This document shows positions 1 to 15,000 of a stretch of 38,987 bases of DNA, one piece after another; the stretch's first letter is position 1, and every line of letters begins with the position of its first letter. The DNA lies in the IMG/VR virus record IMGVR_UViG_2879770953_000004. One strand, 5' to 3'. The stretch comes from a virus. Taxonomy: Duplodnaviria; Heunggongvirae; Uroviricota; Caudoviricetes. The position numbers are program-made.

Positions 1-3000
1 ATGAGTGATGGGTGGTTAGATTCTACTATGCAAGCAATAAACGATAGGATTAAAAGCCCATTATGGGGATATATCATTCTTGCATGGGTATGGTTCAACT
101 GGCCTAACTTAGCAATGCTCTTTATGAGTGATGCGCCTGTTAAGTTTCGAATAGATTATATACTATCTCAGGAATATTTTTACGCTCATTATCTGCTTGC
201 TCCTGTCTTTTTTGGAGGTGTGCTAGCTGTTATTACTCCTTATGCTCAATGGTTACTTTCTCTTGCTCAAAAATGGGCTACAGATAAACACAATGAAAAT
301 GTTTATCTTACAAAGGAAAAAGAATACTTGGATTCAATCAGGTTAACGGGGTTAAAGGTTCGGGCTGCCAGAGAAGAAGAGAAAGAAAATGCTAAAATTG
401 ATGCTGATATTAAAGCGGAAGTAGAGCGTGGTAAGCGTGAAGAGCTGGTCACAGAAGAGCTACAGACAGAGAAGAAACTGATTCAGAAAGAAATTAATAA
501 TTTAAAGCAGTTAGTATCTAAAGAAAAACAAACCATTGAAAATATCGAGATAGAAAAAGAGAGACTACAGGATTTGATTGTTGCCTCACTTGAGGTAATG
601 GATGATTTCTTTAAAGTTGATAATAGCCGTTCATTACAGCAATTGAAGAGTAGGGTAGAAGAACTTTTAACAGTTTCTGATATTGAAGCTTCTACCATAC
701 GTAACGCGCTACGACAAAAGAAAGAGCTAACTTCATCACAGACAATGAAAATGTTCGATATGGTAGAGGCTAAAATTAAAAAGGAAAAAGAAAAAGGTAA
801 TGATATAGAGTCGGATGAATTAATTAACCAATAATGCTATGCCTGTAAATAACAGGACATAAACAGGTTAGTACCTATGCAATTTAACGGTATTTTTCCA
901 AGTATCTATGCAATCCTACACAGATTCTATACAGTATCGACATAGCCCCTTTTTATCATAACTTATTGAAATGTATAGAGAATCTGTAAATCCTCTTTTC
1001 AGGGTAAACTATATCGTGTTAGTCGTCCCTCTCCAGACACTACATATAGTGCTATATACAGGGCTATATAACGGTGTCTATGCAGTTGGTCACTATCAAT
1101 ATTCCCTCAAAGTGACTATCAACCTACTTAATAGTTACCTACGTGAAAGTTATGAAGTGATGGTTATAGTTCCTTCGTATCTCCTCTTAAAAAATCACTT
1201 AGAGACATCTTAATCTCTATACAGAATCTACGTAGGTGCTTATTAGTGCGCAAAACAGCTATTATGTTAAAAACATACTGTATACATATCAGTACTGATT
1301 TATAAGGGTTTTGTGTATTGGCTGATAAGAGGCTATACAGCACCTTGAGAGCATGTCTTATAAGTCATTGACACATAAGGTCACAGAAGTTTGTAGCTGT
1401 TACAGAGAAAACTGGATAGGACTTCACAGAACTACAAAATGTTACAGCTATTGATAGGTTAAATCTTCTTGATAGATGCTTTGAAGTGTGATGAAGGTTT
1501 CTTGAGGTGGGGCTAAACAGATATCATGAAGAAAGTCAATAGTTGGTTATAGATATTTTAACTGCTTTTGCAAAGGGAGTGCTATATCGTGAATCTGGGG
1601 TACTTAACAGCCATCAATTGAGTGTAGATATTTTTGAAGATTATCGGTGAAGGGGAATGTAGAGGGGTTACTACGATATTTATAAAAATTTTCAGACTCT
1701 GAAAAGTTACTGTACAGATTTTATACAAACAAAAAAGGACTCCGGTGAAGGAGCCCTCATCAGGTAGATTTTTAATGTGGCTACTACCATCCACCCATAC
1801 CGCACCAAACCTTACCCCACCGAACCGCACCCTACACGACCTTACCTCACCGGACACTGCCATAGAGAGTGTGCTTGGTTGCTTTGGAAGTAAACCTAGT
1901 ACAGTAAGCCATTATACATATCTAGATAGTAACGTCAAGAAACTTTTAACAGGAGGGGTTCCTATGGTCACATATTCCCTCTCTTCCCACTAAGTAAGCC
2001 TTAGCAGCACCTAAGCAACAATTGACTAACAGATTCGGTAGAGTCTATCTCATAGGTCAACTTCATAAACTCAGAGTTAAGTTACCTTGAAAGATTCTAC
2101 CAAGAACTACACAGGTGTTATTTAGTCTAACTGTGAAGGGATATTTAACGGGAGAAGAGATACGATATAACCCGAAGGGAGAGTATCATCTTAACAATTA
2201 TCTTAAGAATAAAAACTGAAAAACTCTTAACAGATAACTACCTAGAAAGAAGGGAACGATAAGACCAGAGGTAGTGACCTGTTAAACAGGCTGTTTCGAA
2301 GTCTCTTAAGAGTCTGTTAAGTAAGGTCATGTGAACAATCTTACCATTTTGTCAATGCCTTTGTCTTTGACCTAAATCAATAAAATGTATCGTTTGATAT
2401 GGTTTTAAGCAAAATAGCTAAAAAATCTTTTTAGAGGGGCGCTTCGCTTGTGTCACCAATATTATTCTTCCCTGTCTAAGGGGGAGGTTACAGAGGTCTT
2501 TCAAACCTCAATAGGCAAACCGAGGAACACGAAGGACGAGGGAAGAAAATCTATTGTGATTACCTTGAACAACGCCTGTAAAGACTGTCAAGAAGGTTGG
2601 TTAAGAATGGCTCTCCCTTTCTGGGGTTATCGCCTTGTATCTTAGTGATGAAGTGGTCAACAAAAACTGGCCACCGAGTTAGAGTTTTTCCAGTATCGAT
2701 TTTCCGATTCGTTTGGGGGTAACCCACCGTTATATTCGTGCGGTCTTAATGCGCTGTAATATCCAACGATATAGTCCGTTATGGCGTGAGCTGCCTCGCT
2801 GAAGCTTACGTAACCCACCACCGGCATCCATTCGTTCTTCAGACTCCTGAAGAAGCGTTCCATTGGGCTGTTATCCCAGCAGTTTCCGCGCCGGCTCATA
2901 CTCTGTCTGATCTGGTATCGCCACAATAACTGCCGGAACTGCCTGCTCGTATAATGACTGCCCTGATCGCTGTGGAACATCACCCCGCCGGGCTTACCAC

Positions 3001-12000: not shown

Positions 12001-15000
12001 GCGAACTGGCGTGTTTCATTAGCCCGGTAGCATGAACCATTATCCGTCAGCCACTCCACTGGAGACGACGGAAGATCGTTGCCGAAGCGGCGTTCCACCG
12101 CTCCCAGCATGACGTCCTGTACTGTTTCACTGTTGAAGCCGCCGGTAGTCACCGCCCAGTGCAGTGCCTCACGATCACAGCAGTCCAGCGCGAACGTGAC
12201 ACGCAGTCTCTCTCCGTTATCACAGCAGAACTCGAACCCGTCAGAGCACCATCGCTGATTGCTTTCTTTCACGGCCACTCTGCCTGTATGTGCCCGTTTC
12301 GATGGCGGTACAGCAGGTTTTCGCTCAAGCAACAGCGCATTCTGGCGCATGATCCGGTAAACACGTTTGGCATTGATCGCAGGCATACCATCAAGTTCTG
12401 CCTGTCTGCGAAGCAGCGCCCATACCCGACGATAACCATACGTGGGCAGCTCTCCGATAACATGGTGTATACGGAGAAGCACATCCGTATCATCAGTGTG
12501 ACGACTGCGGCGGCCATCCATCCAGTCATCGGTTCGTCTGAGAATGACGTGCAACTGCGCACGCGACACCCGGAGACAACGGCTGACTAAGCTTACTCCC
12601 CATCCCCGGGCAATAAGGGCGCGTGCGCTATCCACTTTTTTGCCCGTCCATATTCAACGGCTTCTTTGAGGAGTTCATTTTCCATCGTTTTCTTGCCGAG
12701 CAGGCGCTGGAGTTCTTTAATCTGCTTCATGGCGGCAGCAAGTTCAGAGGCAGGAACAACCTGTTCTCCGGCGGCCACAGCAGTAAGACTTCCTTCCTGG
12801 TATTGCTTACGCCAGAGAAATAACTGGCTGGCTGCTACACCATGTTGCCGGGCAACGAGGGAGACCGTCATCCCCGGTTCAAAGCTCTGCTGAACAATTG
12901 CGATCTTTTCCTGTGTGGTACGCCGTCTGCGTTTCTCCGGCCCTAAGACATCAATCATCTGTTCTCCAATGACTAGTCTAAAAACTAGTATTAAGACTAT
13001 CACTTAAATAAGTGATACTGGTTGTCTGGAGATTCAGGGGGCCAGTCTATTGACCAAATGAACCCGCTTTATATTGGTTAAGCGTCTGGTGACCTTCATC
13101 ATTAAGAGTCCTGACAATCTCCCAGATAGACTTACCCTCTAACCGTAGCTGAAAGCACCTCTTCACAGTCTCCACTTTCTCAGGGATTACAGAGAAGCTT
13201 TTACGGTCATCATTAAGCTTAAGCCATGCAGGACAACGTTTAGAAATCTTGATACCTTCAGAGATGAGTTCTTTTTTACGGTTCCATGCAGCTTGTATAC
13301 GCTCAGACTTCCTCAAACTCTCCTCATGCGACCGCTGCATTATCAGAATGCTTTTAATCAGAGCTAACGGGTCTTTAAGAGATTCTCGTGTGTAATGTTC
13401 ACCATCGGACAAGGTGACCACATCTACACCAGAGCGAAGAATGTTTCTGAGTAGCTCACTTGCTTGGTCTACATCTTGACGTGACAGACGGTCAAGAGAT
13501 TCTATCAAGAGCGTATCACCAGCTTTAACAAGCCCTTTCTCGATAGCGGTTAAAAAGTCACCTAAGCCACCTTTCAAGTGCTTACCAGTGAACCCACTCA
13601 CCCCCAAATCACGGAAGGATAAATCTTGGTCAAGGTAGTACTCAGGATGAGCCTTAAGCCAGTCATTAACCATCTTAGACTGTCTGCGTAGTGAGTCGCC
13701 TTTGGCTTGTCGCTCAGAACTGAATCTGATGTAGCTGATTACACGTTTCATTCTTTACCACCATAAAAACTAATAGCAGTTGGGCTTGTTATGAGGATGC
13801 TTCATCCGAATCATCTACCAACCCCTAGATTGTATCGCTTTAGGTGGTGTATTTAAACGTGTCTGATGAAAATCACCCGATTAACGCCGCGCTGATGTAA
13901 ACCGCGATTAAGCGTTTGTTCCTCTTCCCCTTTGGCGAAAAACTGTGGATGGCGGACTTCCACACCATAATTAAATTCGCCAGGGAGAGAATCGAGAAAA
14001 TGCCAAAGCGCAGGCAGCTCCCGTGGGCCGAATGTGGCAGGCAGTTGCAGCCAGTATTGCCCAATGCGCGGAGCCAACGGTGACATGCGGGTCAAAAATT
14101 CAGTCACTAAATCATCGCAATGTCGTAATGCTGCCTGATGCGAAATGGTCGCCGGAAACTTAAAACAGAAGCGGAAGTCATCTGTGGTCTGTTCACGCCA
14201 GCGCAGGACAACCTCGGGTTTCGGCAGGGCGTAAAGCGTGGTGTTGCCCTCCACGCAGTTAACATGACGGGTATTGAAGGCTAACCCACTGATTTTAATA
14301 AGTCTCTTGTGTCACTTTGGTGACCATGGGACATAATCTGCCAGCTTCTGATTCAGCATTGCGATCTGTTCTGCATTACTGTCAGTCATCCATGCTCCGT
14401 ATACATTGAACACCATCTGGGCACTTGCATGGCCCATCTAGCTGGCAATGAAGCTTGGGTTTGCTCCGGCAGATAATGACCAGCACGCATAAGTGTGTCG
14501 TGACTGGTATGCTTTCCGGTGCCTGATGCCCGCACGCTTAATGGCTGTTTCCCATGAGTCGCCAATGGAATCTACCTTGTAGATAAAACCTACCTGTTTG
14601 CTTTTTCTAACCACCTGGGGGTTAAATACGAAAGTACATTCATGATTCACTGAACGTCCATATTCACGTAGTTGAACCTTGATGTGGTGCTGCTTACCCA
14701 GTCTTGTCATTTCAGCCTGATTTTTCAGGACACTGATAGCGGGCTGGATAAGATGCACAACCCTGTTTGTACTTGCTTCAGTTTTAGGTAGAGTGAACTC
14801 ACCGAGTTTCGTATAATTGCGCCTGATAGTAATAGTTCCTGCTTTCATATCGATATCTTCCCAGGCCAGGGAGACCAGTTCACCGTGACGCATTCCTGTG
14901 TACACAGCCAATGACCACAGGTTTTTCGTCTGCTGATGTCGGCAAGCATCTATCAGGCGAATAAATTCGTCACGAGTTAACGGATCTGGCTCTGCCCTGG

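Follow-up and report, generated by a model that had tools for sequence, protein, structure and literature searches.

The DNA analysed here, called the window throughout, is the 38,987-nucleotide IMG/VR virus record IMGVR_UViG_2879770953_000004 (Caudoviricetes), and this work concerns an integrative island at its left end. The first 15 kb of the window are 100% identical to the chromosome CP026098.1. An original prediction, made from the sequence alone, had described positions 1-13751 as an island of largely uncharacterised genes, AT-rich up to about 11000 and ending in a large serine recombinase (LSR). The composition bore this out: the GC content is 0.34-0.42 over 1-11000, save for two insertion sequence (IS) elements (0.50-0.54), compared with 0.52-0.60 in the prophage to the right. 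Also confirmed were a gene for a membrane and coiled-coil protein (ORF1, 1-834), whose ATG is base 1 of the window, and a repeat-rich non-coding region (835-2647). The two predicted plus-strand gene blocks were recovered at 4491-6296 and 6769-10877, the first of them ending short of the proposed position 6374. Pfam identified the suspected HNH motif (HNH_3, 5534-5821) and tape-measure core (TMP_3, 7864-9930), and scans of the island open reading frames (ORFs) with Pfam, PHROGs and NCBIfam detected no capsid, terminase, replication or lysis genes, as had been predicted.

The recombinase inserted the island into yecE

The recombinase gene, the IS elements and the right-hand end are arranged as follows:

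2648-3898, minus strand: IS911-like insertion of the IS3 family with terminal inverted repeats and rve and HTH_Tnp_1 ORFs, foreign to the island and not found in its relatives
10892-11718, minus strand: C-terminal part of the LSR (residues 234-507) with Recombinase and Zn_ribbon_recom domains, identical to an intact 507-aa allele of other S. flexneri assemblies
11719-13049, minus strand: IS2-like insertion of the IS3 family that interrupts the LSR gene; its target duplication measures 5 bp
13047-13751, minus strand: N-terminal part of the LSR (residues 1-233) with a Resolvase domain (1.1e-18) and the catalytic motif YIRFSSERQ
13752-13870, no strand: right end (attR side) with the arm repeat GGTGTATTTA at 13846-13855, inverted relative to TAAATACACC of the left end, and the crossover AA at 13869-13870
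13871-14274, minus strand: middle fragment of yecE (DUF72), flanking host DNA, interrupted a second time by a lambdoid prophage at about 14275

Both ends were defined by comparing the junctions with intact yecE, as the original prediction had proposed. The left end lies 99 bp before base 1 and the right end at 13870, not at 13751 as first thought; the island thus comprises window positions 1-13870 plus these 99 bp, or about 11.4 kb without the two IS copies. The native yecE sequence at the insertion site is GTCTAAAATCACCC. With a slash marking the border, the left junction reads GTCTAA/GATTAGCAAGGTCTAAATACACC (beginning GTCTAA/GATTAG) and the right junction GGTGTATTTAAACGTGTCTGATG/AAAATCACCC (CTGATG directly before the slash). 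A 2-bp AA/TT crossover and imperfect inverted arms (TAAATACACC and GGTGTATTTA), without long direct repeats, are the signature of an LSR.

The predicted recombinase was present at the island end, but as a gene split by the IS2-like element inside the Recombinase domain; its start lies 119 bp from the yecE fragment. Rejoining the two fragments gives, without any other change, the 507-aa protein found intact in other S. flexneri assemblies, and Resolvase, Recombinase and zinc-ribbon domains stand together in this one protein of about 500 aa. The IS2 insertion is therefore recent, and because it splits the LSR gene the window copy would be unable to excise by itself. We conclude that the LSR inserted the island into yecE. 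Additionally, when GTDB genomes were searched with the LSR, a fragment 94% identical to the island recombinase turned up on a 548-bp 'Mycobacterium sp.' contig (NZ_LMVQ01000531.1; L016 in our numbering of compared loci), which is probably E. coli or Shigella DNA contaminating that assembly.

Tail-like genes beside a recombinase could also mark where a prophage, ordinary or decayed, ends with the tail module of a siphovirus or myovirus next to its integrase. The tape measure and baseplate genes do adjoin the recombinase, and the immediate neighbour on the right is a lambdoid prophage. The original prediction, which already doubted an ordinary prophage, had named full-length, high-identity matches to structural genes of a phage whose remaining genome lies directly upstream of base 1 as the observation that would reduce the island to an ordinary prophage end. 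Instead, CP026098.1 contains at this place 99 bp of island, the border to the C-terminal portion of yecE (DUF72) and then yecN, cmoA, cmoB and torZ. Furthermore, the element of about 11.4-11.9 kb has defined att ends and occurs in dozens of genomes, the neighbouring prophage is lambda-like and separately inserted at the 5' end of yecE, and the phage family that donated the tail genes (see below) is strictly virulent and has no integrase. The upstream host DNA and the yecE-flanked relatives refute a prophage end, to which we assign next to no probability.

The tail genes are related to those of Felix O1-like phages

The second gene block ends with two tail genes, each preceded by a cis motif:

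7775-7848, plus strand: cis motif before the tape measure gene, inverted repeat ACGTAAA...TTTACGT followed by CACGCTTAA
7864-9930, plus strand: tape measure protein (TMP), 688 aa, PF20155 (TMP_3), phrog_4036 (1.8e-97)
10015-10084, plus strand: second cis motif, before the Dit-like gene, GCTACGTGA...TCACGTAGC plus CACGCTTAA
10104-10877, plus strand: Dit-like baseplate hub protein, 257 aa, PF21821 (Dit_like), phrog_3721 (2.7e-129)

Over its whole length, the Dit-like protein shares 69-73% identity with a protein encoded by about 260 Felix O1-like phages of Escherichia, Salmonella, Shigella, Citrobacter and Erwinia, and the TMP shows 29% identity end to end with the TMPs of these phages (about 741-746 aa). 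Compared with phage SUSP2 (L002), the island TMP is 34% identical to gp016 overall, with high values for the N-terminal 40 aa (77%), the core at about residues 305-345 (77%) and the C-terminal tip (62%), and about 20% in the remainder; at 688 versus 746 aa it is 58 residues shorter. The Dit-like protein is 73% identical to gp017, its C-terminal 60 aa being island-specific. In SUSP2, gp016 and gp017 adjoin directly after the tail chaperone genes, and the TMP-Dit order of the island is syntenic with them. When every island ORF was compared with the whole SUSP2 genome by local tblastn, TMP and Dit alone matched. The base composition of the island also resembles that of the phage, at about 38-40% GC.

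These comparisons indicate that the tail genes derive from a myovirus (Felix O1-like) and not from a siphovirus. Felix O1-like myophages, the Ounavirinae, are lytic phages, strictly virulent and devoid of temperate markers or an integrase; TMP and Dit were thus captured from virulent phages. Contact with such phages seems to have continued. In the relative L019, Dit residues 41-160 match SUSP2 gp017 at 95-100% identity, the DNA is 90% identical over 513 bp, and both protein ends remain island-specific; this shows recent recombination with a phage. Two other relatives (L001, 16724-17565; L009, 3880-4404) carry an HNH-AP2 homing-endonuclease gene of phage type, which has 41% identity to SUSP2 gp046 and occupies the exact position of the DR_4-like element of the window described below. 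This suggests homing of HNH-AP2 genes into the island from co-infecting Felix O1-like phages.

Both cis motifs lie about 15-25 nt before the start codon and consist of a 7-10 bp inverted repeat with a loop of 36-38 nt, followed by CACGCTTAA. The same motif precedes the TMP gene in L019. The paired motifs may provide island-specific control of the tail genes. A role of CACGCTTAA as a phage late promoter was considered and rejected, as the sequence does not occur in SUSP2 intergenic DNA.

The non-coding region resembles the phage genome terminus

In the Ounavirinae, a non-coding region of 1.67 kb, which is about 80% conserved across the subfamily, contains the genome termini. Felixounaviruses, with a GC content of 38.7%, package their DNA via a 581-bp direct terminal repeat (DTR), which is annotated at both ends of phage Pr103Blw (PMC8303462). 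The corresponding features of the island are:

835-2647, no strand: repeat-rich non-coding region resembling the terminal non-coding region of the Ounavirinae, with abundant TGTTAAG/CTTAACA, CTATACAG and AGAATCT motifs
1535-1722, plus strand: segment like the right boundary of the DTR, collinear with Pr103Blw 514-699, where the DTR ends at 581
1730-1938, minus strand: predicted small transcription unit over the DR_4-like element, with promoter TTGACG-16-TATAAT (1938-1911) and intrinsic terminator (1758-1735)
1756-1864, plus strand: DR_4-like element, consisting of a hairpin (1763-1788) with conserved loop and covarying stem, then about 12 (NNACC) pentamers
2196-2321, plus strand: patches like the DTR interior (Pr103Blw 267-479), including a 46-nt match of 78% and 42.6 bits
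4385-4470, plus strand: main promoter region of the first gene block (block A), sigma-70 type, TTGACA-17-TAGTAT at 4410-4438

Heptamers repeated in SUSP2 70740-72407 occurred at 24.8 per kb in 835-2647 (z=6.8, relative to mononucleotide shuffles only) and at 1-10 per kb elsewhere in the island. A BLAST search of 835-2647 against SUSP2 gave matches solely in the terminal region and in the region of the DR_4 repeats. The two best terminus alignments scored 42.6 and 37.9 bits, the maximum for shuffled sequences being 26.9 (n=30). Additionally, window positions 2032-2056 and 901-935 match the phage segment just before the DTR. A nine-sequence alignment of the boundary segment (seven island variants and two phages) revealed the invariant blocks GATATTTTAA, TTTTGCAA, GGG.TAC..A.CAG, CAGATATTTTT and TTTATAAAAA, the third of which spans the cut site. 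The segment is kept in members at wrbA, at tonB and in Citrobacter, which differ in LSR, block A version and host. Segment 1535-1722 is a candidate packaging or terminus mimic. Two further comparisons were discarded: record start points of the phages momo and Sf19 were uninformative for the termini, and a 24-nt likeness between 4382-4408 and DTR positions 11-34 is more readily explained by TGTTA iterons common to both.

The repeat named 'DR_4' in the annotation of phage wV8 (L012) was found in 111 records of Ounavirinae, with two to four copies between the DNA ligase gene and the early genes (about 27605, 27734, 28984 and 29116 in SUSP2; 2813-2870 and 4206-4263 in wV8). The hairpin loop of 16 nt is conserved. 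When eight copies from island and phages were compared, each of the five stem pairs showed compensatory changes, with 95% paired; none of 500 shuffles was as good, and slid controls reached 22-58%, although these scores are somewhat inflated since the stem was defined from the same eight sequences. The element might serve as an origin, as a priming site or as a leader to which a protein binds. The phage copies bracket a two-gene cassette beside the ligase and polymerase genes, and one GenBank record guesses 'binding site of StbAB'. In the island, the promoter of the minus-strand unit at 1730-1938 matches the consensus at 11 of 12 positions, and both L007 and L008 conserve the unit. Its predicted transcript has a length of about 170 nt (1730-1904) and a fold z of -2.55.

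On the upstream side of the block A promoter lie two TGTTA motifs and on the downstream side two inverted copies (TAACA), with the same core as the iterons of the phage terminal region. The promoter region is almost invariant in seven variants, though the next gene is hypervariable.

The island belongs to a conserved, mobile family

The IS-free core (4137-11700) was matched in 486 of 5426 complete E. coli genomes (about 9%) at 80-95% identity, always in the chromosome. Intact relatives measure about 11.9 kb between the two halves of yecE, with variable cargo and IS copies; O157:H7 strain Rafaela_II, for instance, carries a 13.4-kb member in yecE with an IS1203 insertion. E. coli PEC1009 and WP9-S17-ESBL-11 are examples of strains whose element is intact. 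Citrobacter freundii and, at yecE, another enterobacterium also harbour members. Upstream of wrbA, a member encodes a 547-aa LSR, and between yciI and tonB another encodes a 506-aa LSR; there are thus at least three integration sites (yecE, wrbA and yciI-tonB) with three LSR alleles.

The gene order is conserved throughout: an accessory gene, about 1.5 kb of non-coding DNA that includes a cargo slot, block A and a hairpin-rich spacer, followed by ORF234, one or two small ORFs, the TMP gene, the Dit-like gene and, on the opposite strand, the LSR gene. The cargo slot of the relatives holds the HNH-AP2 endonuclease, a Dam-like methyltransferase or an FRG-domain cluster. Block A exists in two alternative versions, one of them with an HTH_36 protein. 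In variants with the alternative block A (L017, 908-984; L029, 4027-4084), a copy of the SUSP2 tandem-TTGACA early promoter region (about 80.7 kb) lies upstream of this block.

In five compared variants the core genes are intact, with dN/dS values of 0.1-0.3, and are under purifying selection; TMP alleles differ between variants by up to 55% in protein. These data bear on a further explanation, in which the DNA is a generic island or remnant whose tail genes and non-coding scraps were gained by chance in abortive Felix O1-type infections and are functionless now. Most ORFs have indeed no assignable function, the window copy is IS-ridden, and O157 genomics calls SpLE2 of strain Sakai (see below) a plain 'integrative element' (PMC6256406). 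Yet the core genes have stayed intact at these dN/dS values in variants as divergent as 45-65% in protein, the gene order is kept across genera and integration sites, and the phage-like cis segment contains blocks invariant in all variants. Moreover, exchange with phages was repeated and recent, and not one old capture. We regard a functionless remnant as improbable.

A putative satellite of Felix O1-like phages

By Pfam and PHROGs, capsid and terminase genes and most tail genes are missing from the island, which carries helper-like cis elements. A phage satellite with few structural genes had been among the options of the original prediction, and it is the one that the evidence favours. The alternative of a decayed siphovirus tail region did not hold, in view of the precise LSR ends, the intact and selected core, the three integration sites and the tail genes from virulent myophages. 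We consider it probable, on balance, that the family, present in E. coli, Shigella and Citrobacter, consists of satellites, at once hijackers and inhibitors, of Felix O1-like Ounavirinae, comparable to the PLEs of V. cholerae, which are LSR-integrated islands parasitising the virulent myophage ICP1. The assignment of the helper to Felix O1-type phages is well supported by the tail genes and cis elements; the satellite mechanism, which we infer, leans on the analogy.

By this mechanism, infection would induce the island, perhaps via the TGTTA operators around the main promoter, which match the phage terminal iterons; these operators could act by competing with the TGTTA iterons, dozens of which arrive on the phage DNA. 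The LSR would excise the island and, as it carries no replication genes, the phage replisome would copy it. The phage terminase would then package the island through the terminus mimic, and the island TMP and hub protein would take the place of the phage proteins in chimeric tails. Because the island TMP is 58 aa shorter, such tails would be about 6-9 nm shorter, as scaled from PLE data, and the phage yield would drop as a result. The TMP and hub genes may recombine with helper alleles, and the mimic of the DTR boundary may be what lets the phage terminase package the island. The hairpin-(NNACC)n element may be a phage origin or priming site that serves in the island as a small RNA or an origin mimic. 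It is possible, though we put this forward tentatively, that the family is the first enterobacterial group of PLE-like satellites, with hardly any replication or packaging proteins of its own, pirating the tail nucleation of its helper (TMP and hub), its genome terminus (the DTR-boundary mimic) and the hairpin-(NNACC)n element.

Several observations weigh against a satellite. No capsid-size, terminase-redirecting or replication gene was recognisable, and a genome of 11-12 kb would have to be fitted into an 88-kb head. The DTR position derives from one annotated record, the PhageTerm-derived one of Pr103Blw, and no mimic of the left DTR boundary rose above shuffle level in the island. The DR_4-like element is missing from variants L001 and L009, and the phage-like non-coding patches could be regulatory modules, not packaging or origin signals. 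AlphaFold2 models of ORF183 (pLDDT 48) and ORF234 (pLDDT 55) were uninformative. Finally, the IMG/VR contigs with the island are regions of 20-55 kb, several from isolate genomes and none of the size of a satellite virion; they show no sign of encapsidation and are probably predicted prophage regions.

The same data can be viewed as those of a defence island that interferes with phages and is not itself mobilised. Variants of TMP and hub would act as dominant-negative subunits that poison Felix O1-type tails, the population would be protected without transduction of the island, and the phage-like non-coding DNA would just sense infection or time expression. The TMP, which retains just the phage-like N-terminal, core and C-terminal interaction segments, and the island-specific C-terminal 60 aa of Dit are in line with such a role. 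Known defence mechanisms include a block of tail assembly (Tai, PMC11364771; Rta of PLE11), the cargo slot is typical of defence hot spots, and packaging, capsid and replication genes were not found with Pfam, PHROGs or NCBIfam. A pure decoy, however, has no need of a conserved phage-terminus mimic. The presence of the family at three or more chromosomal sites and in several genera, with dedicated LSRs, also calls for some transfer route, and in PLE, the sole tested analogue, the same gene set serves the assembly of satellite virions. PADLOC gave no match. A defence or cargo island had been proposed originally as well: a variable cargo slot with methyltransferase, FRG-domain cluster or homing endonuclease exists, but no known defence system does according to PADLOC. 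Interference without mobilisation is, in our judgement, unlikely, but it is the main rival of the satellite reading. The Tai tail-assembly inhibitors themselves are, by their description, small phage-moron proteins and not tail-gene homologues, and were set aside as a comparison.

Felix O1-like phages are workhorses of typing, biocontrol and therapy for Salmonella, E. coli and Shigella. If the island family consists of their satellites, it would be an unrecognised determinant of host range and efficacy of these phages, present in O157:H7 and Shigella flexneri among others and, overall, in about 9% of complete E. coli genomes. The chimeric-tail strategy of the Vibrio PLEs would then extend to the Enterobacteriaceae and to a genetically tractable host-phage pair. 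The shared cis elements (DTR boundary, DR_4 hairpin and pentamer array, TGTTA iterons) offer direct handles on genome recognition, replication and packaging in DTR-packaging myophages such as the Ounavirinae.

Other genes of the island and the neighbouring prophage

The remaining features of the island are:

1-834, plus strand: ORF1, 277 aa, membrane and coiled-coil protein with hydrophobic segments; phrog_13369 and phrog_4780 (function unknown); dN/dS 0.2
4491-5042, plus strand: ORF183, all-helical and hypervariable, 59-85% identity among island variants, dN/dS about 0.2
5044-5322, plus strand: ORF92, small, weakly DndE/RHH-like (TIGR03184, E=8e-4, below cutoff)
5322-5537, plus strand: ORF71, which together with the HNH gene stands in for a 128-aa gene of other variants
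5534-5821, plus strand: HNH_3 endonuclease, 95 aa (Pfam, PHROGs), very conserved, dN/dS 0.04-0.08
5973-6296, plus strand: ORF107, core gene (gene call and variant comparison)
6297-6768, plus strand: intergenic region with long hairpins and terminator-like structures before the tail block; hairpin-type matches at 6321-6416 and 6634-6747; phage 7-mers z=2.3
6769-7473, plus strand: ORF234, core gene, two long helices (60-125 and 170-224; model pLDDT 55), dN/dS 0.15
7497-7709, plus strand: ORF70, small and variable, directly upstream of the TMP gene

ORF1 is accessory, as the O157:H7 relative L009 carries an unrelated 306-aa gene at the same place. A protein identical to ORF183 of the window is assigned to Shigella flexneri. 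ORF183 falls into 1072 clusters at 90% identity in public data and is a candidate specificity or regulatory protein; it is hypervariable, yet its promoter and TGTTA/TAACA operators are nearly invariant, as seen with hypervariable master repressors of other satellites. ORF92 is a candidate DNA-binding protein, and the HNH gene of the window looks like a truncated homing-endonuclease gene that has no AP2 domain and is related to the HNH-AP2 gene of L001 and L009. ORF234, confined to Escherichia, Shigella, Citrobacter and relatives, is a candidate chaperone or scaffold. The place of ORF70 parallels that of the phage chaperone genes gp014 and gp015, and its product is a candidate tail assembly chaperone. 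For 7 of the 10 island ORFs, PADLOC, Pfam and NCBIfam returned nothing. Searched with PADLOC-DB, the ten ORFs gave no known defence system and one sub-threshold match (PDC-S26, E=0.003), and an Rfam scan of 1-14300 gave just two chance miRNA-type hairpin matches.

The lambda-like prophage beginning at about 14275 sits in the 5' part of yecE, has the structural genes A, Nu3, V, H and J and encodes its own integrase on the minus strand (ORF 14438-15583). It was inserted separately and is unrelated to the tail genes of the island. The yecE gene has thus been struck twice, by the island at about codon 160 and by the prophage at about codon 31, leaving two unrelated elements in tandem (13871-15583). 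Four tRNA genes (Met-CAT, Arg-TCT, Thr-TGT and Gly-TCC) are clustered at 17871-18180 inside the prophage. Near its right end, at about 36000-37500, the GC content falls to 0.38-0.44 with strong positive GC skew; this stretch may be a cargo or moron region.

Comparison with known systems

The original prediction had regarded the island as a candidate for an undescribed system. This family was indeed not found in the literature searched, which contained no satellites of Felix O1-type phages, but the kind of element was shown for Vibrio PLEs in 2026 (PMC12987554). PLEs encode a tail assembly chaperone (TAC), TMP and a baseplate hub protein (BhuB), those of PLE11 being 20%, 20% and 41% identical to the ICP1 proteins; they replace the ICP1 proteins, which yields chimeric tails 10 nm shorter, and they are needed for transduction (PMC12987554). 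The same study noted predicted tmp genes in other putative satellites, including some cfPICIs (PMC12987554, Extended Data Fig. 10).

The likeness between island and PLE extends over several features. Both are small, AT-rich, LSR-integrated islands with a strictly virulent myophage as partner, which for our island is inferred. Both contain mostly orphan genes and exchange genes related to homing endonucleases with the phage. Both carry a partial tail pathway homologous to that of the helper, consisting in the island of TMP and hub, with only a candidate for the TAC equivalent. In both, the hub is better conserved than the TMP (41% versus 20% in PLE11; 73% versus 34% in the island) and the TMP is shorter than that of the phage. 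In contrast to PLE, neither a RepA_N hit nor an assignment to other PLE proteins (TcaP, NixI, CapR, LidI) was obtained for the island ORFs in profile scans with Pfam, PHROGs and NCBIfam. The hosts are Enterobacteriaceae (Shigella/E. coli) and the helper family is the Ounavirinae, the island carries mimics of the helper DTR boundary and of the DR_4 element, and it is known from its sequence, whereas PLE is known by experiment.

Putative E. coli satellites described by Barth et al. 2023 are also islands of 10-14 kb that lack most tail genes, a subset of them with a serine recombinase, and their right end likewise consists of TMP, a 'phage baseplate protein' and an integrase on the opposite strand. 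Unlike the island, they encode major capsid and decoration proteins and RepA_N and have mostly a tyrosine integrase at tRNA genes. Neither the proteins nor the DNA of the island gave a BLAST match to L030, a member of that type, and the L030 proteins do not match Ounavirinae either. Strain NCCP15648 contains both L030 (NZ_CP009050.1, 285104-310364; tRNA-Thr locus, tyrosine integrase) and L029, a member of the island family at the tonB locus.

Going by its size, SpLE2 of strain Sakai is presumably the O157:H7 member of the island family. In the O157 literature, elements of the SpLE2 type come without a function, a helper phage or a satellite interpretation. Sakai SpLE2 was described there as a small integrative element with an integrase but no other genes of mobile elements (PMC6256406).

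With cfPICIs, PICIs and P4-like satellites the island would share the principle of a chromosomal island exploiting a helper phage. It differs from them in that Pfam, PHROGs and NCBIfam detected no capsid, terminase (terS), head-tail connector, alpA, pri-rep or psu/sid/delta/alpha genes, in having a serine recombinase and not a tyrosine integrase, and in its presumed helper, which is virulent and not temperate. Judged by its gene content and by the parallel with PLE, the island most likely represents a new family within a recently established class of satellites, which combines an LSR with tail genes of its own.

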